Assembly (NCBI GenBank): GCA_902610815.1 | Contig: CACLXG010000001.1 | Location: 76,775-140,774, forward strand | From: an uncultured Candidatus Actinomarina sp. | GTDB lineage: Bacteria; Actinomycetota; Acidimicrobiia; Actinomarinales; Actinomarinaceae | Direction: 5' to 3' | DNA length: 64,000 nt | Shown here: one piece after another, positions 32,839-58,141 of the stretch | How positions within the stretch are numbered: the stretch's first letter is position 1 | Layout of the letters: each line of letters begins with the position of its first letter | Notes under the pieces: model-generated | The model's database searches: none | What the model was told of the DNA's origin: nothing | The model's input: the letters and a program-made list of their open reading frames with translations, nothing else | Translations under genes and position numbers: made by a program

Positions 32839-33474
32839 ATGAACGGTATTTATTGGGACTGTGATGGCACTTTAATGGATACCGAAACATCATATGGATT
32901 AGCATGGAAAGAACATCTGAGTGATTTTGGACTTGAGATATCTGAAGAGGAAACTAGACAATGGGTGGGTATTGACGATAGATTGGTTCACAGCTTTTAT
33001 GCAAAAAATGTTGATTTAGAAAATTTTGAGAAAACTATGGCATCTCTTGGAAAAATTATAGAAGGGACGTTGAACGAAAAACTAATGTTTCAAGATGCAA
33101 AAATACTACTCGAGGAGACAAACAACAGGGGATGGACGTCAGCATGTGCCTCAGCAAGCCCTTATGAGTTATTAAAAAATAAATTAATAAAAGCAAATAT
33201 TTTTGATTATTTCTCATATGTTATAGGAGGTGATCAAGTTGAAAGAAATAAACCATATCCAGATATTTACAATAAAGCGATCAGTGAACTTCAAACTACT
33301 AAGAATATAGTTATTGAAGACAGTCCTCCTGGAATATCATCTGGGAAGGCATCCGGTTCTTTTGTAGTTGCAATTGATAGAGGAATATTTTCAAAAGATG
33401 AATTAAATAAAGCTGACTTAATTGTTGATAATTTATCTATAGATATCATAGAAACAGTTTTTAATAGCCTTTAA
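32839..33474 (+). CDS. HAD-superfamily phosphatase (beta-phosphoglucomutase-like subfamily IA)
   Basis: Motif I DCDGTLMDTE; 211 aa. Confidence 0.7.
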   Translation: MNGIYWDCDGTLMDTETSYGLAWKEHLSDFGLEISEEETRQWVGIDDRLVHSFYAKNVDLENFEKTMASLGKIIEGTLNEKLMFQDAKILLEETNNRGWTSACASASPYELLKNKLIKANIFDYFSYVIGGDQVERNKPYPDIYNKAISELQTTKNIVIEDSPPGISSGKASGSFVVAIDRGIFSKDELNKADLIVDNLSIDIIETVFNSL

Positions 33475-33527
33475 ACATTGATGAAATTCAAAATAGATTA
33501 CAAAACTGACTTAGGCGCAAAAATAGA

Positions 33528-33977
33528 CTAAGACAAATTTAAAATTAATACAGGTATTTTTCGTTTTGTTCTTTGTTGGTAATTGGAATATCCACCTTTA
33601 TTCATGTAATCCATTTTTGACCACCAGTCTTCACGCTCTTCATCAAAGACTTCTTTAGCGACTGCAGTGTATTTCTTTCTTCCAATTTGAATTTCACATT
33701 TAGGGTTAGCTTTTAAATTATGATACCAGCCTGGATTAGTAGGACTTCCACCTTTAGATGCTACTAAACAAATTTCATTACCTTCTTTCATGAAAACAAG
33801 TACATTTTTTCTTAACAAATTAGTCTTAGCACCAGTTGAGAAAAGAATTAAACACGGTCTTCCCTGTAGAAATTTTCCTATTCTGCCATTTGAATAGATA
33901 TAAATATAATTGTGAAAAAACAAGAATGTAAAAATTAAATATCTTCTCATATATTTAACTTTATCTTTTTTCTCCAT
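33528..33977 (-). CDS. Deazaflavin-dependent nitroreductase-family protein (DDN / DUF385)
   Basis: VASKGGSPTNPGWYHNLKANP...YQQRTKRKIPVLIL matches the DDN family. The likely start is M10, overlapping the stop of the upstream photolyase-like gene. Confidence 0.7.
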   Translation of the reverse strand: MEKKDKVKYMRRYLIFTFLFFHNYIYIYSNGRIGKFLQGRPCLILFSTGAKTNLLRKNVLVFMKEGNEICLVASKGGSPTNPGWYHNLKANPKCEIQIGRKKYTAVAKEVFDEEREDWWSKMDYMNKGGYSNYQQRTKRKIPVLILNLS

Positions 33978-35146
33978 GAACTGAAACTTGTAGGGTAAAA
34001 ATTAATGGGATCTGCAAGTCGTAATGCCGGGAATTCTACAGATGGAATATTTCTTTCTGTAATTTTTTTGTATTTTGGTACTGGTGCAAATGTTGATGCA
34101 AAATTTTTATTTTGTAAATAATCATCTGGATTGGTTAAATGTACTTGCAGCTCCCTTTTGTTATTAATTTCTTTAAGGCAATCAAGTAAAAAATTAATTC
34201 TCTTTGTTGATAATTGCAATTTACTTAACAGCTTTATATCAAATATAAAAATTACTGGTAGTTCGTGATAATGAATCATTGCTGGATCATTGTCTCCGAT
34301 AGATTCACCTGTAATCCATACACAGGATGGTTTAGTACTATTATTTTCTCTTATGTTTTTTGGACCGAAAACTTTTTCTTCATCTATTTTAAAATCATTA
34401 TTTAATTTTTCAGAAATATTTGTTTGCGGCCATTCTTGAATTGGGCAGTCATATTTTAATTCACAATTATTACATAATTGGGGTGCTCTTTTTTCAACTT
34501 GGAATTTGGAAAATCCATATGGCTTTCCTGTTTGTGATCCCATGACCCAATGCCATCCTAACCTGTTTGCAAAACGAGACCCATCTAATAAATGTTGAAA
34601 CATATAGTCCTCATATTGATTCCAGTCGTTACCTACCCTTAAAGAATTATGAGATGCATACCACATTCTTGTCTGATTAACCATATAACCTGTTTTTTCC
34701 AATTCTTTTTCGATAGTTGATACACAATTCATATTTTTATAAATATCTGCATTCGATTGAGGTTTTTCTATTTTGTAATTTAGATATTTTCTTGATTTTT
34801 TACCAACTATTGCATATAAATGTCTTGCAAATTCTTGCCAAAGCAACTCATCTTGGAATTTAGTTCTATCTTTGTATTCAAATTTCTCAACTGCTTTCCA
34901 TACATCTGAAAGACTAAGTAAACCATGTCGTATATAGGGGGATAGATAAGATGAACCTCTGGAATCTTTGGGGTAAACGTTGTTTCTTTTCGTAGCATAC
35001 TTATTAATATTTAGCTGATTTAATGCATTATCTGCGTTTGATTGGCCACCAGACACAAATGGATAAGTGAAATCATCACAACAAAGGCCACTAAAATATT
35101 TTTGTATTATTTCTTTATTATCAAGTTGTAGATCAATTAAAGACAT
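33947..35146 (-). CDS. Photolyase/cryptochrome homologue with permuted domain order (FAD domain then alpha/beta antenna domain)
   Basis: N-terminal part carries SYLSPYIRHG, LLWQEFARHLY and RMWYASHNSLRVGNDW...GWHWVMG (FAD_binding_7-like). C-terminal part carries CVWITGESIGDNDPAM, LPVIFIFD and FYPTSFSSWRKK (photolyase N-domain-like). Confidence 0.7.
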   Translation of the reverse strand: MSLIDLQLDNKEIIQKYFSGLCCDDFTYPFVSGGQSNADNALNQLNINKYATKRNNVYPKDSRGSSYLSPYIRHGLLSLSDVWKAVEKFEYKDRTKFQDELLWQEFARHLYAIVGKKSRKYLNYKIEKPQSNADIYKNMNCVSTIEKELEKTGYMVNQTRMWYASHNSLRVGNDWNQYEDYMFQHLLDGSRFANRLGWHWVMGSQTGKPYGFSKFQVEKRAPQLCNNCELKYDCPIQEWPQTNISEKLNNDFKIDEEKVFGPKNIRENNSTKPSCVWITGESIGDNDPAMIHYHELPVIFIFDIKLLSKLQLSTKRINFLLDCLKEINNKRELQVHLTNPDDYLQNKNFASTFAPVPKYKKITERNIPSVEFPALRLADPINFYPTSFSSWRKKIKLNI

Positions 35147-35155
35147 TAAATGTAA

Positions 35156-35371
35156 TTAGTATTTATCTTGTCCGATTCGTATATTTACAACAGTTAAAAC
35201 TTCTTCTATATTTTCTATATCGAAATTTACTCTTTGTCCCTGTCTTAGAGTTCTAAAAATAGATCCCTTTAAGGATCCTGGTGCAAGAAAGACTTCTGAT
35301 TTGTCCGTGTCTAGTAAGATAATTCCATTACCCGTATTTGGATCATAGGATTTTACAACACCCTGAGCCAT
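35156..35371 (-). CDS. Cold-shock-domain protein
   Basis: GVVKSYDPNTGNGIILLDTDKSEVFL resembles the CspA RNP motifs. 71 aa. Confidence 0.55.
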   Translation of the reverse strand: MAQGVVKSYDPNTGNGIILLDTDKSEVFLAPGSLKGSIFRTLRQGQRVNFDIENIEEVLTVVNIRIGQDKY

Positions 35372-35607
35372 TAAACTTTTTCGCCTCTACTTCTTATTTC
35401 TTTAACAACAGACTCAATACCGCGTTTGTCTATTACTTTATTACCTTTTGTACTAACTTTAAGCTTTACCCACCTGTTTTCACTTTCAAGCCAGTATTTT
35501 TTAGTTTGAATATTTGGTTTGAACCATCGATTGTTTCTTTTATGAGAAAAAGATACATGTTTACCTGATCTTGGCTCTCTTCCAGTTACTTGACATCTAT
35601 TTGACAT
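35371..35607 (-). CDS. rpmB: 50S ribosomal protein L28
   Basis: MSNRCQVTGREPRSGKHVSFSHKRNNRWFKPN is an L28 signature. Confidence 0.85.
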   Translation of the reverse strand: MSNRCQVTGREPRSGKHVSFSHKRNNRWFKPNIQTKKYWLESENRWVKLKVSTKGNKVIDKRGIESVVKEIRSRGEKV

Positions 35608-35692
35608 AATATTTTCCTCTAAATTACATTTATAACTATAACTAATTTATTAATTTGTAGGTACTTTCATTTTAAAACTTTTTAGGTAATGT

Positions 35693-37819
35693 TTGATTGT
35701 GGTTGAAAGAAGTTTAAGTTACTTAGATAATATAAAGTTAGATTCTTTAAAAGGATTTGGTGAGAAAAGATATTCAAATCTTAAAAAGAGTAATTTATCA
35801 TCCATTACCGATTTAATTAGATTTTATCCAAGAAAACACATTGATAGATCAAAAATAAAAACAATAAATCAAATTGATCAATCAGATATTGAAAAAGAAG
35901 TAACAATGATTGGTACGATCAGTAATGTTTCAGTATTTACAACTAAATCAAGATTAAGGATAACGACGCTTTCAATAAAAGACAGCACAGGCTTGGTAAA
36001 AGCAAAGTGGTTTGGACCTCAATATATAGAATCGAGATTTAAAGAGGGTGAAGATGTTGCTCTTTCTGGAAAGCCTGATATTAAAAAAACTGGATCAATA
36101 GAATTTAAAAATCCCACAATTGAAAAATTTGCTGATATAGATGAACTGAGCGAGACGGGATCTTTAATTCCTATATATCCAAAAGTTGATGGTGTATCTA
36201 GTGGTGTAATAAGAAAAGCAATAAAAGACGCATTGTCAATCATTGATACACCTAAAGAAGAGTTTGAACCTGGAATTGAAGACATGCTTACTAGTGAGGT
36301 TGTAGATAAAAATTCAATTTTTTCTAGAACTGAAAGTTTTAAATCAATTCATTTCCCTAAAACCATTGAAGAATTCCAAAAAGCAAGAGAAAGGCTTGCT
36401 CTTGATGAATTTATATATTTACGTTCTATATTTGAAAATTTAAAATCTGAATTTAAAAATAAAAACAAAGGGCCAAAATATATTTTTGAAAATTCATTAA
36501 TAGACACTTTTGTTGCAGACTTACCATTTCAACTCACAGAATCTCAAACAAAAGCCTATAAAGAGATTCTAGAAGATTTAAAAAATGATTATCCCATGAA
36601 AAGACTTCTTCAAGGCGATGTCGGCTCAGGAAAGACAGTTGTGGCTGCAATTTCTATATATGCTGTAATAAATTCCGGTTACCAAGTGGCACTAATGGCT
36701 CCAACGGAAGTATTGGCTGAACAACATTTAAATTCATTAAATGCATTTTTAAAAAATTCAGATGTAGAGGTTAATTTTCTTACTTCCTCTGTCAAAGATA
36801 GAAGCGAAGTAATGAATAATATATCTGATGGTAAGCCTGGATTATATATAGGTACTCATGCCTTAATTCAAGACAAAGTATTCTTTAGTAATTTAGGTCT
36901 CGTAATTATTGACGAGCAACAGAGATTTGGTGTTGATCAAAGAAAAAAATTAATATCAGATTCAGAAATAACTCCCGACCAACTTGTTATGACTGCAACT
37001 CCAATACCAAGAACTACTGCTCTATCTATATATGGTGACTTAGAGATATCTTCAATAAATGAATTACCTCCGGGCAGAAAGCCAATTGTTTCACATTTAT
37101 ATAGTGGTTTAAAAAAAGACAATGAGAAAGTTTTTGAAATGTGTTACAAACATTTAGATGATGATTCGCAAATATTTGTAGTTTGTCCCTATATAGAAGA
37201 GAGTGAGTCTTCTGATATACAGGCAGCAGAAAAAGTTTTTTTGGAATATTCTAAAAAATTTTCGGATTACAAGGTTGTTCTTCTACATGGAAAGATGTCT
37301 TATGAGGAAAAAGAAAATATAATGCGATCAATGCAGGATGGCTCTATAGACATACTTGTCTCTACTGTAGTTATAGAGGTTGGTATAGACATTCCAAATG
37401 CCTCTCTTATGATTATTGAAAGTGCAGAAAGATTTGGTCTTAATCAACTGCACCAGCTCAGAGGAAGAGTAGGTAGAGGAGAAAAACAATCAGAGTGCAT
37501 TTTTCATATTACAAATAAAAAATCTCTCAGCACTATCAGCGAAGAAGGTGTTAAAAGATTAGAGGCTATATCAACAATGAGTGATGGATTTAAATTATCA
37601 GAGATAGATTTAGAAATTCGGGGTGAAGGAAAGGTAACCGGTAAAAACCAATCAGGTAGGTCTGACTTAAAAATTGCTGATTTACGTTTTGATTATGGTT
37701 TACTTATTCAATCCAAAGATATTTATGATGATATCAAAAGTTCAAATTCATCGAATAAAGTATTTGAAGAAGCAAAATTATTATTTCCTAATTATTTTCA
37801 AGCAGACGGGACTACATGA
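35693..37819 (+). CDS. recG: ATP-dependent DNA helicase RecG
   Basis: Wedge/OB N-domain, Walker A GDVGSGKT, DEQQRFGV, and motif VI QLRGRVGRG. Confidence 0.85.
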   Translation: MIVVERSLSYLDNIKLDSLKGFGEKRYSNLKKSNLSSITDLIRFYPRKHIDRSKIKTINQIDQSDIEKEVTMIGTISNVSVFTTKSRLRITTLSIKDSTGLVKAKWFGPQYIESRFKEGEDVALSGKPDIKKTGSIEFKNPTIEKFADIDELSETGSLIPIYPKVDGVSSGVIRKAIKDALSIIDTPKEEFEPGIEDMLTSEVVDKNSIFSRTESFKSIHFPKTIEEFQKARERLALDEFIYLRSIFENLKSEFKNKNKGPKYIFENSLIDTFVADLPFQLTESQTKAYKEILEDLKNDYPMKRLLQGDVGSGKTVVAAISIYAVINSGYQVALMAPTEVLAEQHLNSLNAFLKNSDVEVNFLTSSVKDRSEVMNNISDGKPGLYIGTHALIQDKVFFSNLGLVIIDEQQRFGVDQRKKLISDSEITPDQLVMTATPIPRTTALSIYGDLEISSINELPPGRKPIVSHLYSGLKKDNEKVFEMCYKHLDDDSQIFVVCPYIEESESSDIQAAEKVFLEYSKKFSDYKVVLLHGKMSYEEKENIMRSMQDGSIDILVSTVVIEVGIDIPNASLMIIESAERFGLNQLHQLRGRVGRGEKQSECIFHITNKKSLSTISEEGVKRLEAISTMSDGFKLSEIDLEIRGEGKVTGKNQSGRSDLKIADLRFDYGLLIQSKDIYDDIKSSNSSNKVFEEAKLLFPNYFQADGTT

Positions 37820-52725: not shown

Positions 52726-53122
52726 ACTGTACTTCTACACATACATTTAACGGTAAGCTAGCAACACCTACAGCTGATCGTGTCGACTTTTCAATAAAGT
52801 ATTCTGAAAGTTTATCTGTAAACCCATTGAGGACTTTTGCGTGATCCCCAAAACCTTCATTAGCATTTACAAAACCAATAACATTTACAGGTTGTAAGTT
52901 TTCAATAGATCCATGTTTTTTAATTGTTGCAATAGTAAGTTCAGCACATAACTCTGCCGCTTTATAGGCTTCATCTACTGAAATTTCAGTTGGTACCTTT
53001 CCTATATATTTTTTTTGTTCTGTAATAGGTACATGTCCAGATGTGTACACATAGTTTCCAATTTTTTTATATGTTACATAATTTCCAATTGCTTCCGGAG
53101 CGATTGGAAGATTGTTATCCAT
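52706..53122 (-). CDS. ridA: RidA/YjgF-family reactive-intermediate deaminase
   Basis: 138 aa; C-terminal AVGVASLPLNVCVEVQCVF. Confidence 0.7.
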   Translation of the reverse strand: MDNNLPIAPEAIGNYVTYKKIGNYVYTSGHVPITEQKKYIGKVPTEISVDEAYKAAELCAELTIATIKKHGSIENLQPVNVIGFVNANEGFGDHAKVLNGFTDKLSEYFIEKSTRSAVGVASLPLNVCVEVQCVFIDG

Positions 53123-54119
53123 TATTTAATAGATTTCCAATAAGATCTACAACTCTATTTGAGTAACCCCATTCGTTGTCGTACCAACATACAACTTTGA
53201 CGTGATTTTTGTCTATTAATTGTGTTGAAGATGCATCATAAATACTTGAATGTGGGTTATTTAATATATCGGTAGATACAAGAGGAACTTCAGAGTACTC
53301 TAAAATACCTTTCAGTTCGTGATCTGCAGCTTCTTTAACAGCTTTATTTATATCATCTATAGAAACAGACTTTTCTAATTCCACCACTAAATCAACTACA
53401 CTTCCATCTGGCACAGGAACTCTCATTGCCATACCATCTAATTTGCCGTTTAATTCAGGTAAAACCATACCAACTGCTTTAGCTGCGCCTGTTGAAGTAG
53501 GAATTATATTTTGCGTAGCACTTCTGCCTCTTCTAAAATCACTATGTGTTGTTTCAGCTAGTGCTTGATCATTAGTGTATGCATGTACTGTGGTCATAAG
53601 ACCAGATTTGATTCCAAAATTATCATCCAATACTTTAGCTATGGGTGCTAAACAGTTTGTAGTACATGATGCATTAGAGACAATTTTATCATCTGGCTTC
53701 AAGTCATTGTCATTTACACCTAAAACTATTGTTGCGTCAATTTCATCTTTGGGCGGTACAGTAAGTAATACTTTTTTAGCACCAGCAGATATGTGTTTAT
53801 TAAGGGATTCATTATCTCTAAAAATTCCAGTTGATTCAATTACAACATCCACATCTAATTCGCTCCATGGAAGCTCAGATGGATCTTTTATTGAGGTAAG
53901 TTTAATAACTCTGTCTCCAACTAAAAGATTGTCTCCATCAACATTTACATCGCTATCCAAAATGCCCATTACAGAATCATGTTTTAAAAGATATGCAAGA
54001 TTTTCATAATTACCGAGGTCATTAATTGCAACAACATTTATATCAGAATTATTTTCAACAATTATTCTTAATATAGAACGTCCAATTCTTCCAAAACCAT
54101 TTATTGCTACATTACCCAT
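53115..54119 (-). CDS. gap: Glyceraldehyde-3-phosphate dehydrogenase (canonical)
   Basis: NGFGRIGR and active site SNASCTTNCLAP are intact. Confidence 0.85.
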   Translation of the reverse strand: MGNVAINGFGRIGRSILRIIVENNSDINVVAINDLGNYENLAYLLKHDSVMGILDSDVNVDGDNLLVGDRVIKLTSIKDPSELPWSELDVDVVIESTGIFRDNESLNKHISAGAKKVLLTVPPKDEIDATIVLGVNDNDLKPDDKIVSNASCTTNCLAPIAKVLDDNFGIKSGLMTTVHAYTNDQALAETTHSDFRRGRSATQNIIPTSTGAAKAVGMVLPELNGKLDGMAMRVPVPDGSVVDLVVELEKSVSIDDINKAVKEAADHELKGILEYSEVPLVSTDILNNPHSSIYDASSTQLIDKNHVKVVCWYDNEWGYSNRVVDLIGNLLNNG

Positions 54120-55125
54120 TTATAAAACCTGACCGAGCTTTTTCACTGTATCGACAATTCTAGCTGCATAACCCCAACCATTATCAAACCAAATAATGAG
54201 TTTAATTTTTTTATTATTAATACCCATTGTTGCTAACCCGTCCACTAAACCAGAGAATGTACTTCTTACAACATCAGAAGAAACAATTGGATCATATGTT
54301 AATCCGATAATGTTTTTTAAATCAGAATTGGAAGCATCCTCAATTATTTTATTGATATCTTCAATACTTGTTTCGTTTTTTGATATCAATTGTCAAATCA
54401 ACTGTACTTCCGTCAGGAATTGGTACTGTCATTGAAGATGAAGCTATCTTTCCTTCTATGAATGGAAGAACATTTGATATTACCTCAGAAGACTTGGTAA
54501 TACTTGGGATAATATTTTCACCAGCTGCTCTGTTAAGTCTAAAACCTTCACCTGCTACATCTGCTAAACGGTTTGAATTTGAATATCCATGAACAGTCGT
54601 GAGAAATGCTCTTTCAACCCCAACTTTACTATCTAAAGCTTTAATAATTGGTGCAACTGCATTTGCTGTATTGGAACCTAAGGAAAATACACTTGAGTTT
54701 AAATCTATATTTTCATCGTTTGCACCAGGCACATATATTTGTATATCTTCAAAATTTTCGGGAGTTGAGGCAACGATAACTTTTTTACAACCTTTTGATA
54801 AATGTTTATCAACTTCTTCTTTAGTCTTTGGTCTGCCAGTTGCAAGAACTACGATGTCAGTGTTTAGTTCATCCCAATTTGCTTCGTCACCATTTTTCCA
54901 AGAATTAAATATGATTTCTTTACCATTAACAACAATACCAGTTTCAGTTTCCTCAATTTCTGCATCTAACTTTCCGTAAATTGAGTCGTACTTTAATAAA
55001 TAAATTAAGTTAGCTTTATCAGCGGTGTCAGAAATAGATACAATATTTATATCATTATCATCCAATGTTTGCCTAAATAGATCTCTTCCTATTCTTCCAA
55101 AGCCAACTAAAGATACATTTGCCAT
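54120..55125 (-). pseudogene. GAPDH-like paralogue, frameshifted and lacking both active-site cysteines
   Basis: Two ORFs (54361-55125 N part, 54120-54389 C part) overlap in different frames at a T6 run (54376-54381). The active-site region reads SLGSNTANAVAP instead of SxxSCTTNCLAP. Confidence 0.55.
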
Positions 55126-55194: not shown

Positions 55195-56316
55195 ATGACA
55201 GAATTAACGAGAAAAATTAATGATTCCATCTTTGGAGCAGTTTCAACTGAAGAATTGTTAGCTACTGCTTTTGAAAAGAAAATAGATTACTTTGGCAACA
55301 ATATTACATATAGTCCTAAAGTTTTTATTCCACTAACAACAATGTGTAGAGACAATTGTGGATATTGTACATTTGTAAAATCTCCCAAAGAGGGTGGAAC
55401 TTATTTAAATCAAGAAGAGGTTCTCTCAATAGCAGAAGCTGGTAATGAAGCTGGTTGCTATGAAGCTTTGTTTACTTTAGGAGATAAGCCAGAGCTCAAA
55501 TGGGATTTTGCTTTAACCCAACTTAAAGAATTAGGCCATTCCTCAACACATGATTATTTAATTAGTTCGATGAAGGTTGTAAATGAGAAATTTAATCTTT
55601 TTCCTCACGCCAACCCTGGTTTAATGAGCAAAAAAGAGATAAAGGAGTTAAAAAATCACTCACCATCTGGTGGGATTATGATTGAGTCATTTTCAAAAAA
55701 AATATACGACAAGGGAAAAGCTCATTACAAAACAGATACTAAATATATTGATTTAAGGTTGGACACCCTTAACAATGCATTAGAAGAGAAATATCCATTC
55801 ACAACTGGATTACTTCTTGGTTTAACTTCAACAAAAGAAGAAATTGTGAATGATATATCTAATTTAATTGATTATGTTAAAAAGAACTCTGCAATTCAGG
55901 AATTAATATTACAAAATTTTAGAGCAAAGAAAAATACATTAATGAAGAATAGTTCTGAAATAACAAATGATTTATTTTTAAGAATCATTGCAACGACTAG
56001 AATTTATGCCCCTTCACATATATCTCTCCAAGTTCCACCAAATCTTTCACCGGACATAACAATATTTTTAAAAAGTGGCATTAATGATTTAGGTGGAATA
56101 TCTCCATTAACTATTGATTGGGTAAATCCAGATCATTTATGGCCAAATATAAATAAATTAAAATTAGATATTTCAAGTACAGATCAAGTCCTTAAAAAGA
56201 GGTTACCTGTTTATCCCGAATTTATAAAAAAAGAATGGTTAAATAGTAAAATTTTTGAAAAAGTTAATAATATTATTGATACAGATGGATATCCAAAAGA
56301 ACACAATGAACAATAA
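55195..56316 (+). CDS. cofG: FO synthase subunit 1 (7,8-didemethyl-8-hydroxy-5-deazariboflavin synthase, radical SAM)
   Basis: CRDNCGYCTF radical-SAM cluster motif. 373 aa. Confidence 0.8.
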   Translation: MTELTRKINDSIFGAVSTEELLATAFEKKIDYFGNNITYSPKVFIPLTTMCRDNCGYCTFVKSPKEGGTYLNQEEVLSIAEAGNEAGCYEALFTLGDKPELKWDFALTQLKELGHSSTHDYLISSMKVVNEKFNLFPHANPGLMSKKEIKELKNHSPSGGIMIESFSKKIYDKGKAHYKTDTKYIDLRLDTLNNALEEKYPFTTGLLLGLTSTKEEIVNDISNLIDYVKKNSAIQELILQNFRAKKNTLMKNSSEITNDLFLRIIATTRIYAPSHISLQVPPNLSPDITIFLKSGINDLGGISPLTIDWVNPDHLWPNINKLKLDISSTDQVLKKRLPVYPEFIKKEWLNSKIFEKVNNIIDTDGYPKEHNEQ

Positions 56317-58141
56317 CATTTCTTTTCTTCGAATCAGACCATGTGATAACGACAATGAAATATATTTAAATTCAAGAAAAAAAGAGGGAACTTCTGCATT
56401 CTTAATAAAAAGTGATGTGTCAGTAAATACAGATAATTTACATAATAAAGATTTTCAAACAGTATCAAAGGATATCACCATAAATTCAGACGCATGGATT
56501 GTTACTGATGAAAACTGGAAGAAATTTAAATCTGTTCATCCAAAAAGATTGATTTACATTTTTAAAAATAATATTGAAATCGCATTAGAAGTTATCGATA
56601 GACTAAAGCCACACACTATTTTAATTTCTACTAATTCAGATTTACAATTCCTTAAATCTATCAACTCAAAAACAAGTTTTATAACATCGACATATGTTGA
56701 AACAATTGAGGAAGCAATTGAATTTGCTAATGCAGGAGTTTCAGATTTACTCCTCAGGGACTGGAGTTCCGAACAGATATTAGAACTTCAAAATCTAGAA
56801 GGACTAAATTTCTATGAACGAACTTTACTTTCTCCAGTATTTTCTATTGATGAAGCAAGAGAAGAATTTGATAAAGAAAGATTTTTTAGATTCTTAAAAA
56901 CTAGAAATATCCGAGGTTTTAGAAGAGAAGAGACAAGTTGGTTTCCTGGTAGTGGAAAAAATATTCCAAATTTAAATAATTTTGTCTTTAACAACAAAAG
57001 CCAAATTAACCATTCTGAATTTGACTCAATATTGAAAAGGGTATTAGATGGATATCAAATTAATAATGATGATCTGAAAGTATTGTTTAATACCGCAGGA
57101 GAAAAAATAAATGATATTGCAAATGTTGCTAATGAGTTAAATTTTTTAAAAAACGGAAATAATGTTTCTTATGTAAAGAATAGAAATATTAATTATACAA
57201 ATCAATGCTATTACAAATGTGGTTTCTGTGGATTTTCTAAAGGTCCTAATAGTTTAAATTTAAAAGAAAAACCATACAGCATTGATATACAAGAAGTAGT
57301 TGAAAGAACTGTCGAAGCATATGAAATGGGTGCATCAGAAGTGTGTTTACAAGGCGGCATTCATCCTGACTATACGGGAGAGTTTTATTTAAAGATGGTA
57401 GAAGATATAAAAGCTTCTGTTCCGGAAATGCATATTCACGGTTTCACTCCTTTAGAAATTTGGCAAGGAGCAGAGACTATTGGTTTGAATGTTGAAGAGT
57501 ACTTAAGTCTGTTAAAAAAAGCTGGGCTAAACACACTCCCCGGTACTGCAGCTGAAATATTAGACGATAGAGTTAGAAAATATCTTTGCCCTGATAAAAT
57601 AACTTCTTCACAATGGGCATATGTCATGGAAGTAGCTCATAACTTAGGGATAAAATCTACAGCAACAATTATGTTTGGTCATATTGATGATATAGATTCA
57701 TGGGTTAATCATTTTTCATTAATTAAAAATGTTCAAAGCAAAACAAATGGATTTACTGAAGTTGTACCTCTTCCTTTTGTTCATATGGGTTCTCCTATTT
57801 ACTTACAAGGTAAAAGTATGCCAGGACCTACTTGGGATGAGGTAGTTCTTATTCACTCATTAGCACGAATTTATTTTGTAAATTCAATAGACAACATTCA
57901 AGCAAGCTGGGTGAAATTGGGTCATGATGGAGCAGGGAAACTACTTCATGCTGGTGTTAATGATTTAGGTGGTACTTTGATCAATGAAAACATTAGCAGA
58001 GCTTCAGGAGCAGATCATGGGCAAGAAACAACTGAAGATCAATTTATTCAAATAATTGAGTCTGAAAATAAAAATCCAATTTTGAGAAATACTCTATATA
58101 CAAAATTCACTGAAACAAAAAATACTTTAGAAAAAAGATGA
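56306..58141 (+). CDS. cofH: FO synthase subunit 2 (radical SAM) with a ~230-aa N-terminal extension
   Basis: ATG at 56306 overlaps the cofG TAA by 11 nt. The CofH-like region with CYYKCGFCGF starts at about residue 235. The preceding region is uncharacterised. Confidence 0.7.
   Translation: MNNNISFLRIRPCDNDNEIYLNSRKKEGTSAFLIKSDVSVNTDNLHNKDFQTVSKDITINSDAWIVTDENWKKFKSVHPKRLIYIFKNNIEIALEVIDRLKPHTILISTNSDLQFLKSINSKTSFITSTYVETIEEAIEFANAGVSDLLLRDWSSEQILELQNLEGLNFYERTLLSPVFSIDEAREEFDKERFFRFLKTRNIRGFRREETSWFPGSGKNIPNLNNFVFNNKSQINHSEFDSILKRVLDGYQINNDDLKVLFNTAGEKINDIANVANELNFLKNGNNVSYVKNRNINYTNQCYYKCGFCGFSKGPNSLNLKEKPYSIDIQEVVERTVEAYEMGASEVCLQGGIHPDYTGEFYLKMVEDIKASVPEMHIHGFTPLEIWQGAETIGLNVEEYLSLLKKAGLNTLPGTAAEILDDRVRKYLCPDKITSSQWAYVMEVAHNLGIKSTATIMFGHIDDIDSWVNHFSLIKNVQSKTNGFTEVVPLPFVHMGSPIYLQGKSMPGPTWDEVVLIHSLARIYFVNSIDNIQASWVKLGHDGAGKLLHAGVNDLGGTLINENISRASGADHGQETTEDQFIQIIESENKNPILRNTLYTKFTETKNTLEKR

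Follow-up and report, generated by a model that had tools for sequence, protein, structure and literature searches.

The 399-amino-acid product of a minus-strand open reading frame (ORF) at 33947..35146 is very probably a member of the published NewPHL class of photolyases, the same class as SPL (short photolyase-like), and of its four-cysteine type found in Actinobacteria and Cyanobacteria. The ORF lies in a 64,000-nucleotide stretch of contig CACLXG010000001.1 from an uncultured Candidatus Actinomarina sp.; this whole stretch is referred to as the window and has a G+C content of ~31%. Ca. Actinomarinales are abundant bacteria of the surface ocean and have tiny genomes. In the protein, the flavin adenine dinucleotide (FAD)-binding catalytic domain is N-terminal and is followed by an alpha/beta domain of photolyase type, unlike canonical class I, II, III and DASH photolyases and cryptochromes, where PF00875 precedes PF03441. 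The original prediction had read this order from the letters alone. It is borne out by PF03441 and model alignments at the N-terminus and by AlphaFold2 and profile-profile comparison at the C-terminus, and the ORF and each motif quoted for it were found in place.

The original prediction also held that such an architecture had not been described, which is wrong. NewPHL was defined by Emmerich et al. in Nucleic Acids Research in 2020 by its inverted topology, and these proteins bind FAD only, possess a two-tryptophan photoreduction chain, lack the phosphate-binding loop and repair cyclobutane pyrimidine dimers (CPDs) in single-stranded DNA only (PMC7736829). The fold of the ~150-amino-acid C-terminal "Z-domain" was left open in that work. 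Its covariation contact map was noted as similar to that of the antenna domain, and the alternative given to an ancestral position was an "early domain swapping event" (PMC7736829). Xu et al. described SPL, with subgroups A, C, Be, Ba and Ac, in Molecular Biology and Evolution in 2021, equated it with NewPHL and treated its members as having no alpha/beta domain (PMC8476157). A 2026 paper cites "NewPHLs or SPLs ... inverted domain topology" as background. Three characterized members, DsNewPHL (A8LJA9), MmNewPHL (M7YZC8) and RfSPL (MK474076), repair CPDs in vitro (PMC7736829, PMC8476157). RfSPL of Rhodococcus fascians, of subgroup Ac, is the nearest of them to the window protein.

The N-terminal domain is recognizable as the photolyase catalytic domain. 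Pfam places PF03441 at residues 98-208 (35 bits, cut-off 27). The photolyase and cryptochrome models of NCBIfam match residues 32-223 to their positions ~205-416, at 18-54 bits compared with cut-offs of 317-885 (best 53.7 vs 884.6), and just ~30 residues of the protein come before the aligned part. In the Protein Data Bank (PDB), the photolyases 1TEZ, 1OWL and 1IQR match residues 44-206 with E-values of 6.5e-12 to 4.7e-10 (~7e-12 for 1TEZ and 1OWL, 4.7e-10 for 1IQR). The AlphaFold2 model is helical over residues 35-226, and a Foldseek search of the full model against the PDB returned only canonical cryptochrome/photolyase proteins, which align over ~210-270 columns of the FAD domain.

The residues that define the active site are retained. 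When aligned by BLASTP to E. coli Phr, the CPD-binding residues correspond as E100=E274, W103=W277, N157=N341, M161=M345 and W200=W384, and the FAD contacts as R160=R344, D188=D372, N194=N378 and G197=G381. Two photoreduction tryptophans are kept (W198=W382 and W175=W359), and the distal W306 is replaced by K128 and is thus absent. None of the mapped CPD-binding, FAD-contact and photoreduction residues varies among 53 aligned homologues, which are 43-86% identical to the window protein. The catalytic domain stops ~40 residues past W200. This conserved CPD and FAD site with a missing distal tryptophan matches the published NewPHL/SPL descriptions (PMC7736829, PMC8476157).

The closest sequence relatives of the catalytic domain are class I CPD photolyases, with E-values of 6.5e-12 to 4.5e-7 (E. 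coli Phr, 1DNP; Synechococcus/Anacystis, 1TEZ/1QNF; Thermus, 1IQR/2J07). The window protein shares with them identical active-site and FAD-contact residues and both domain folds. It differs in its reversed domain order, in having a four-cysteine motif and in lacking the ~70-amino-acid linker, the ~45 residues that close the helical domain and the distal tryptophan. With NewPHL/SPL it shares the conserved CPD active site, the two- rather than three-tryptophan chain, the absence of the long interdomain linker, an N-terminal catalytic domain with no alpha/beta domain before it, an ordered C-terminal Z-domain of ~125-150 amino acids, a length of ~400 amino acids and an actinobacterial host in which a canonical photolyase is present as well (PMC7771536). 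It differs from the characterized members in coming from a streamlined marine Ca. Actinomarinales host of 31% GC, and it is only ~44% identical to Mycobacteriales-type homologues.

Four cysteines, C141, C225, C228 and C234, are invariant in the 53 homologues. Their spacing of +84/+3/+6 is that of Cys155, Cys239, Cys242 and Cys248 of RfSPL, a protein that binds an Fe-S cluster; these cysteines are conserved in SPL subgroups C and Ac (PMC8476157). A Mycobacteriaceae homologue, 44% identical in the best tblastn segment (query residues 17-393), has exactly the RfSPL numbering, with Cys155/239/242/248 and N171. All the other RfSPL residues named by Xu et al. recur in the window protein at an offset of 14 (N171, Q172, R174, M175, W189, D202, A207, N208, G211, W212 and W214) or of 12 (E112 and W115). 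Judging from this correspondence, the most likely role of the four cysteines is to bind a [4Fe-4S] cluster, as seen in RfSPL and in the FeS-BCPs, or prokaryotic (6-4) photolyases (PhrB, 4DJA; CryB, 3ZXS). The FeS-BCPs have the same four-cysteine arrangement after the catalytic core, and for either domain of the window protein 4DJA ranks among the best structural matches. Unlike the window protein, however, FeS-BCPs have the canonical domain order, a PF04244 (DPRP) N-terminal domain, a (6-4)-type active site and an antenna of 6,7-dimethyl-8-ribityllumazine (DMRL) or 8-hydroxy-5-deazaflavin (8-HDF). Pfam found no PF04244 match in the 399-amino-acid protein.

By analogy with the characterized members, the most likely activity of the protein is FAD-dependent, light-driven splitting of CPDs, preferentially in single-stranded DNA. 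The N-terminal helical domain would bind FAD, which would be photoreduced through the two-tryptophan chain from W198 to W175. The CPD would be held by E100, W103, N157, M161 and W200, and excited FADH- would give an electron to the dimer, which would then split. In its new position, the alpha/beta domain would shield the flavin. Because the protein lacks the long interdomain linker that carries the phosphate-binding loop, its substrate is most likely a lesion in single-stranded DNA. Alternatively, the protein could be a light sensor or regulator, that is, a bacterial cryptochrome rather than a repair enzyme. This was raised in the SPL paper, since RfSPL is weak in vivo and the C-terminal extensions recall cryptochromes (PMC8476157). 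Such a role is improbable here, given that every CPD-binding and catalytic residue is invariant across the 53 homologues and that the three characterized members repair CPDs in vitro. Actinomarinales also have a canonical photolyase, whose gene adjoins their rhodopsin gene (PMC7771536). That a second photolyase is kept in a tiny genome suggests importance under high ultraviolet light.

The C-terminal domain is ordered and conserved. AlphaFold2, run on the 53-sequence alignment, gave a two-domain model that is confident throughout (pLDDT 92.8, pTM 0.91). Residues 275-394 form a five-strand beta-alpha-beta array. The pLDDT of residues 273-399 is 91-97 within the two-domain model and averages 90.9 when this segment is modelled by itself, and these residues are conserved across the homologues. 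From the model, the Z-domain is expected to lie against the catalytic domain and to shield the FAD. When the isolated Z-domain was submitted to Foldseek, the top TM-scores (0.53-0.59) belonged to cryptochromes and class II photolyases. A search of PDB sequences with a Z-domain profile gave 29 sub-threshold matches, and 15 of the 29 were to cryptochromes or photolyases, all in their N-terminal domain.

The decisive test of homology was a profile-profile comparison of 83 Z-domains from the retrieved loci with seven canonical N-terminal domains (the E. coli, Thermus, Listeria, Aeromonas, Mesorhizobium and Rickettsia photolyases and the Pseudoalteromonas DASH protein), as only the comparison with this seven-sequence alignment was significant. 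Here hhalign returned a probability of 87.7% and an E-value of 3.4e-6 over 76 columns, in register: VW(I/L)T.ES(I/L)GD.DPA(M/L) lies over (L/V)VW.R.DLRL.DN.AL, LPV.F.FD over beta-2, S.KR..FL over the helix after beta-2, and the next strand over beta-3. The reversed template gave an E-value of 0.55, and the best of 20 column-shuffled templates gave 0.014. Against full-length canonical photolyases, the Z-profile aligned to columns 3-86 of 466 (E 1.4e-5). Smaller inputs yielded little: a 28-sequence Z profile gave 0.42 against the E. coli Phr N-terminus alone and a weak 0.0072 against a single FeS-BCP N-terminus, and a two-sequence FeS-BCP profile gave 0.22 against the Z profile.

Within the class, the Z-profile matched the Deinococcus plasmid member (E 5.8e-13) and, weakly, the Asticcacaulis and Chondrinema members (E ~0.02). 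W391 is invariant in the 53 homologues and aligns with a conserved tryptophan of the Ruegeria, Deinococcus, Asticcacaulis and Chondrinema members. This profile and model evidence identifies the C-terminal region as homologous to the antenna domain, at least in the four-cysteine actinobacterial family. Taken together, fold and profile evidence indicate that the reversed domain order is real and that both domains are homologous to the two canonical domains.

Several results weigh against this reading. PF00875 was not detected by Pfam in the window protein itself, although 12 of 28 Z-domains of the family give weak matches to it (best E 0.0091). The best Foldseek E-value of the isolated Z-domain was 8.5e-3, with no match at E <= 1e-3. 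When a plain hidden Markov model (HMM) of the 83 Z-domains was run against 1522 neighbour ORFs and E. coli Phr, photolyases did not come out on top. The Z-domain of the Ruegeria subgroup-A member is not significantly similar to the Z-profile (E 0.26). The "GFF" motif reported for NewPHL Z-domains, which in Ruegeria stands at residue 392, is absent from the window protein because, unlike alphaproteobacterial members, the protein ends right after the conserved tryptophan, 8 residues beyond it. Class membership is drawn from published residue numbers, architecture and homologues, not from a tree. Every functional statement about the window protein is made by homology: its FAD and Fe-S content, CPD repair and preference for single-stranded DNA are carried over from DsNewPHL, MmNewPHL and RfSPL.

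The marginal Foldseek E-values for cryptochrome and photolyase matches and the failed plain HMM search would also suit a different origin, in which the C-terminal alpha/beta domain is a separately recruited Rossmann-like (HUP/USP-type) domain and no circular permutation took place. The PSIPRED element order, described by Emmerich et al. as unlike a Rossmann motif, is a further point on that side (PMC7736829). This origin is nevertheless quite unlikely. The top Foldseek TM-scores belong to cryptochrome/photolyase proteins, the profile-profile match has the correct register and an E-value far past its controls, and no Pfam family other than PF00875 recurs among the Z-domains. Moreover, published covariation puts the Z-domain on the rim of the antenna domain (PMC7736829).

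Relative to canonical photolyases, the arrangement amounts to a circular permutation at the level of domains. The original prediction had called it a clean circular permutation. The domain-level permutation stands, but it is not clean, because the catalytic domain is shorter and carries the cysteine motif, the canonical ~70-amino-acid linker is absent and a new linker of ~30 amino acids is present. On neither side of the ORF is there a remnant of a duplicated domain: the spacer to the upstream csp gene is 9 nt, and the downstream gene overlaps. Since the architecture is common to several phyla, any permutation event must be ancient. No solved structure with inverted topology was found by Foldseek in the PDB copy searched (to April 2026). 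The inverted architecture is already known, and its practical value here is correct annotation. The new element is small: the Z-domain, of which no model existed before, proves homologous to the antenna domain. Such homology makes it harder to argue that SPLs are single-domain ancestors of the whole superfamily and favors the early domain swapping scenario listed by Emmerich et al., though either order may be ancestral.

The architecture is widespread. In the protein database, 3761 proteins match at E <= 0.001, and the best 120 of these are almost all ~395-400 amino acids long, with 100% query coverage and the same architecture, so the orthologues that the original prediction proposed to look for do exist. 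Relatives are encoded in at least 571 species, with one genome scanned per species. The 80 loci that were kept come from Actinomarinales, Acidimicrobiia, Nanopelagicales, Mycobacteriales, Solirubrobacterales and others, and plasmid-borne members occur in Deinococcus, Bacteroidota and Alphaproteobacteria. The nearest relatives are encoded in single-cell and metagenome Candidatus Actinomarina assemblies, at no more than 96% identity among the matches listed. Such proteins are labelled in databases as "hypothetical protein", "FAD-binding domain-containing protein" or plain "deoxyribodipyrimidine photo-lyase".

An assembly artefact or a rearranged pseudogene, against which the original prediction had cautioned, was ruled out and is almost certainly not the explanation. 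The full-length architecture is found in thousands of proteins and in the genomes of at least 571 species, including single-cell genomes and closed 1-Mb contigs. The start and stop of the gene are conserved, and the AlphaFold2 model is confident over its whole length.

The alpha/beta domain may still be an antenna. In such a reading, it would bind FO (8-HDF) made by the products of cofG and cofH, and the protein would be a deazaflavin-sensitized permuted photolyase; this would extend the NewPHL/SPL explanation and not replace it. As the original prediction noted, cofG and cofH lie in the same window (55195..58141, plus strand), and the organism makes FO/F420. The F420 pathway is complete in Actinomarinales, which also have several F420-dependent oxidoreductases; this general F420 metabolism accounts for the presence of the two genes (PMC7771536). 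The protein itself keeps the antenna-domain fold and sequence register. R316, which is invariant, is paired with Arg51 of the class I enzyme of Synechococcus in a local match that is weak and whose register agrees with the profile-profile alignment; E. coli Phr has a Gln at this position. Apolar residues stand at the equivalents of Ile41 and Leu55. The candidate residues of an 8-HDF pocket are R316, L306, L320 and E281. However, an Arg or Lys occupies the Arg51 position in about half of the canonical photolyases aligned and is therefore no marker of FO binders. The FAPVP segment after beta-4 differs from canonical photolyases, and the helical domain and the interdomain linker, the latter missing here, supply much of the canonical pocket. 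Characterized members held only FAD, with or without an Fe-S cluster (PMC7736829, PMC8476157).

The lack of an antenna in the published proteins is uninformative for FO because of the host used. All characterized NewPHL/SPL proteins were purified from E. coli (PMC8476157), which makes 8-HDF only with an expressed FO synthase; SePhrB was without its antenna until one was supplied (PMC9178010). On balance, FO binding is possible but rather unlikely. If true, the FO antenna in FO-producing Actinobacteria would have been missed in proteins purified from E. coli.

The coordinates of the gene, its parts and the neighbouring features are collected in Table 1.

Table 1. Features of the photolyase locus and of the FO synthase genes in the window.
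Feature	Coordinates	Strand	Basis and remarks
NewPHL/SPL-class photolyase gene (class assignment very probable)	33947..35146	(-)	399 aa + stop; ORF list and family assignment
All-helical FAD-binding/catalytic domain	34427..35059	(-)	Residues ~30-240; Pfam, NCBIfam, BLASTP vs E. coli Phr, Foldseek
Span of four invariant cysteines C141, C225, C228, C234	34445..34726	(-)	Predicted [4Fe-4S] ligands; C141 codon 34724-34726; C225-C234 34445-34474
New interdomain linker (catalytic to alpha/beta)	34331..34426	(-)	Residues ~241-272; AlphaFold2 secondary structure; variable, indel-rich alignment columns
C-terminal alpha/beta Z-domain	33950..34330	(-)	Residues ~273-399; predicted five-strand beta-alpha fold, homologous to canonical N-terminal antenna domain
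DDN-family F420H2-dependent reductase gene	33528..33950	(-)	140 aa from ATGA-overlap start; PF04075, TIGR00026
csp (cold-shock-domain protein)	35156..35371	(-)	Upstream, same tight string
rpmB	35371..35607	(-)	Upstream, same tight string
cofG	55195..56316	(+)	FO synthase; TIGR03550, 360 bits; 20 kb from photolyase gene
cofH	within 56255..58141	(+)	FO synthase; TIGR03551, 456 bits; 20 kb from photolyase gene

The photolyase gene is part of a tight string of genes. As the original prediction stated, it lies downstream of rpmB and csp, and its stop overlaps the start of a gene for a DDN-family reductase (ATGA at 33947-33950). The rpmB and csp genes overlap by 1 nt, csp and the photolyase gene are separated by 9 nt, and recG lies upstream of the string in divergent orientation. 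The DDN-family assignment is secure (PF04075, 132.4 bits vs a cut-off of 22; TIGR00026, 96.3 bits vs 46.35). An alternative ATG at 33977 would give a product of 149 amino acids; the 140-amino-acid form is that called in two other Actinomarinales loci (L001 and L002). Because the streamlined genome packs its genes tightly, the DDN-family gene is probably co-expressed and co-translated with the photolyase gene. Such translational coupling is not reported for the NewPHL/SPL class. A scan of 33300-35800 for promoters and terminators gave counts not above those of shuffled sequence.

The coupling to a deazaflavin-enzyme gene that had been predicted is real in this order, though it does not extend beyond it. 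The reductase gene is immediately downstream of the photolyase gene in all 27 Actinomarinales loci, which span 56-96% photolyase identity, with either a 4-nt overlap or a gap of 2-17 nt. In the 56 loci of other Actinomycetota, no DDN homologue was found within 4 kb (tblastn, E < 1e-4, a search that very divergent members could escape). The whole recG-rpmB-csp-PHL-DDN-HAD-ddl-murF block is syntenic throughout the Actinomarinales loci. Since the block is conserved from recG to murF and the pairing is confined to Actinomarinales, the adjacency is a single inherited event, and in a genome with short spacers it is therefore not independent evidence of a functional link.

These observations bear on whether photolyase and reductase form a functional pair, with the DDN-family enzyme providing, for example, F420H2-dependent reduction of the FAD or of the Fe-S cluster in the dark. 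The ATGA overlap and the constant position of the reductase gene in the 27 loci speak for a pair. The absence of the pairing from all 56 other loci, the synteny that makes the adjacency count once and the replacement of the overlap by a 2-17 nt gap in some genomes speak against it. Actinomarinales also have several F420-dependent oxidoreductases and very short spacers generally (PMC7771536). A functional pair is thus very unlikely. A combined scheme, in which the photolyase has an FO antenna and the DDN-family enzyme uses F420H2 to keep its flavin or Fe-S cluster reduced, is far less likely than the FO antenna by itself.

Outside Actinomarinales, the neighbours of the photolyase gene are inconsistent. 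The commonest is a gene for a small DUF2256+DUF3253 protein just upstream, in 10 of the 56 loci (e.g., L062, 2688-3101). In two actinobacterial loci, an FeS-BCP-type photolyase gene adjoins the SPL gene (L029, 4214-5716; L046, 6345-7901), with PF04244 at 164-179 bits. These neighbours echo the SPL/FeS-BCP operons reported by Xu et al. (PMC8476157). On the Chondrinema plasmid, an annotated cryptochrome/photolyase-family gene follows the SPL gene (L088, 2542-4005).

Some minor observations were made on the surrounding genes. The 71-amino-acid product of the gene called csp (35156-35371, minus strand), between rpmB and the photolyase gene, has a weak cold-shock-domain match (32 bits, E 8.7e-8) and is 65-99% identical across Actinomarinales at the same position. 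The ribosomal protein L28 encoded by rpmB occurs at one syntenic position in two very different types, as seen when the window gene (35371-35607, minus strand) is compared with those of loci L001, L002, L006, L018, L019, L021, L023 and L024. The window type has 78 amino acids and is 84-100% identical. The other is shorter (62 amino acids as called in L001 and L002) and only 37-40% identical. In L006, the photolyase is 92% identical and L28 only 38% identical. This suggests that an rpmB allele or paralogue was replaced within a conserved locus.

The ORF that contains cofH (56255-58141, plus strand) encodes 628 amino acids, and the CofH models cover only residues 247-623. Its first ~246 codons (56255-56995) are open in a genome of ~30% G+C and have no Pfam match, and in another frame they share ~60 nt with the 3' end of cofG. 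This is either an uncharacterized N-terminal extension or a mis-set start. Finally, a truncated second copy of GAPDH (54361-55125, minus strand; 254 amino acids, model positions 2-255 of 330, below the cut-off) sits just upstream of a full-length type I GAPDH gene (53115-54119, minus strand) and may be a pseudogene or a frameshifted paralogue.

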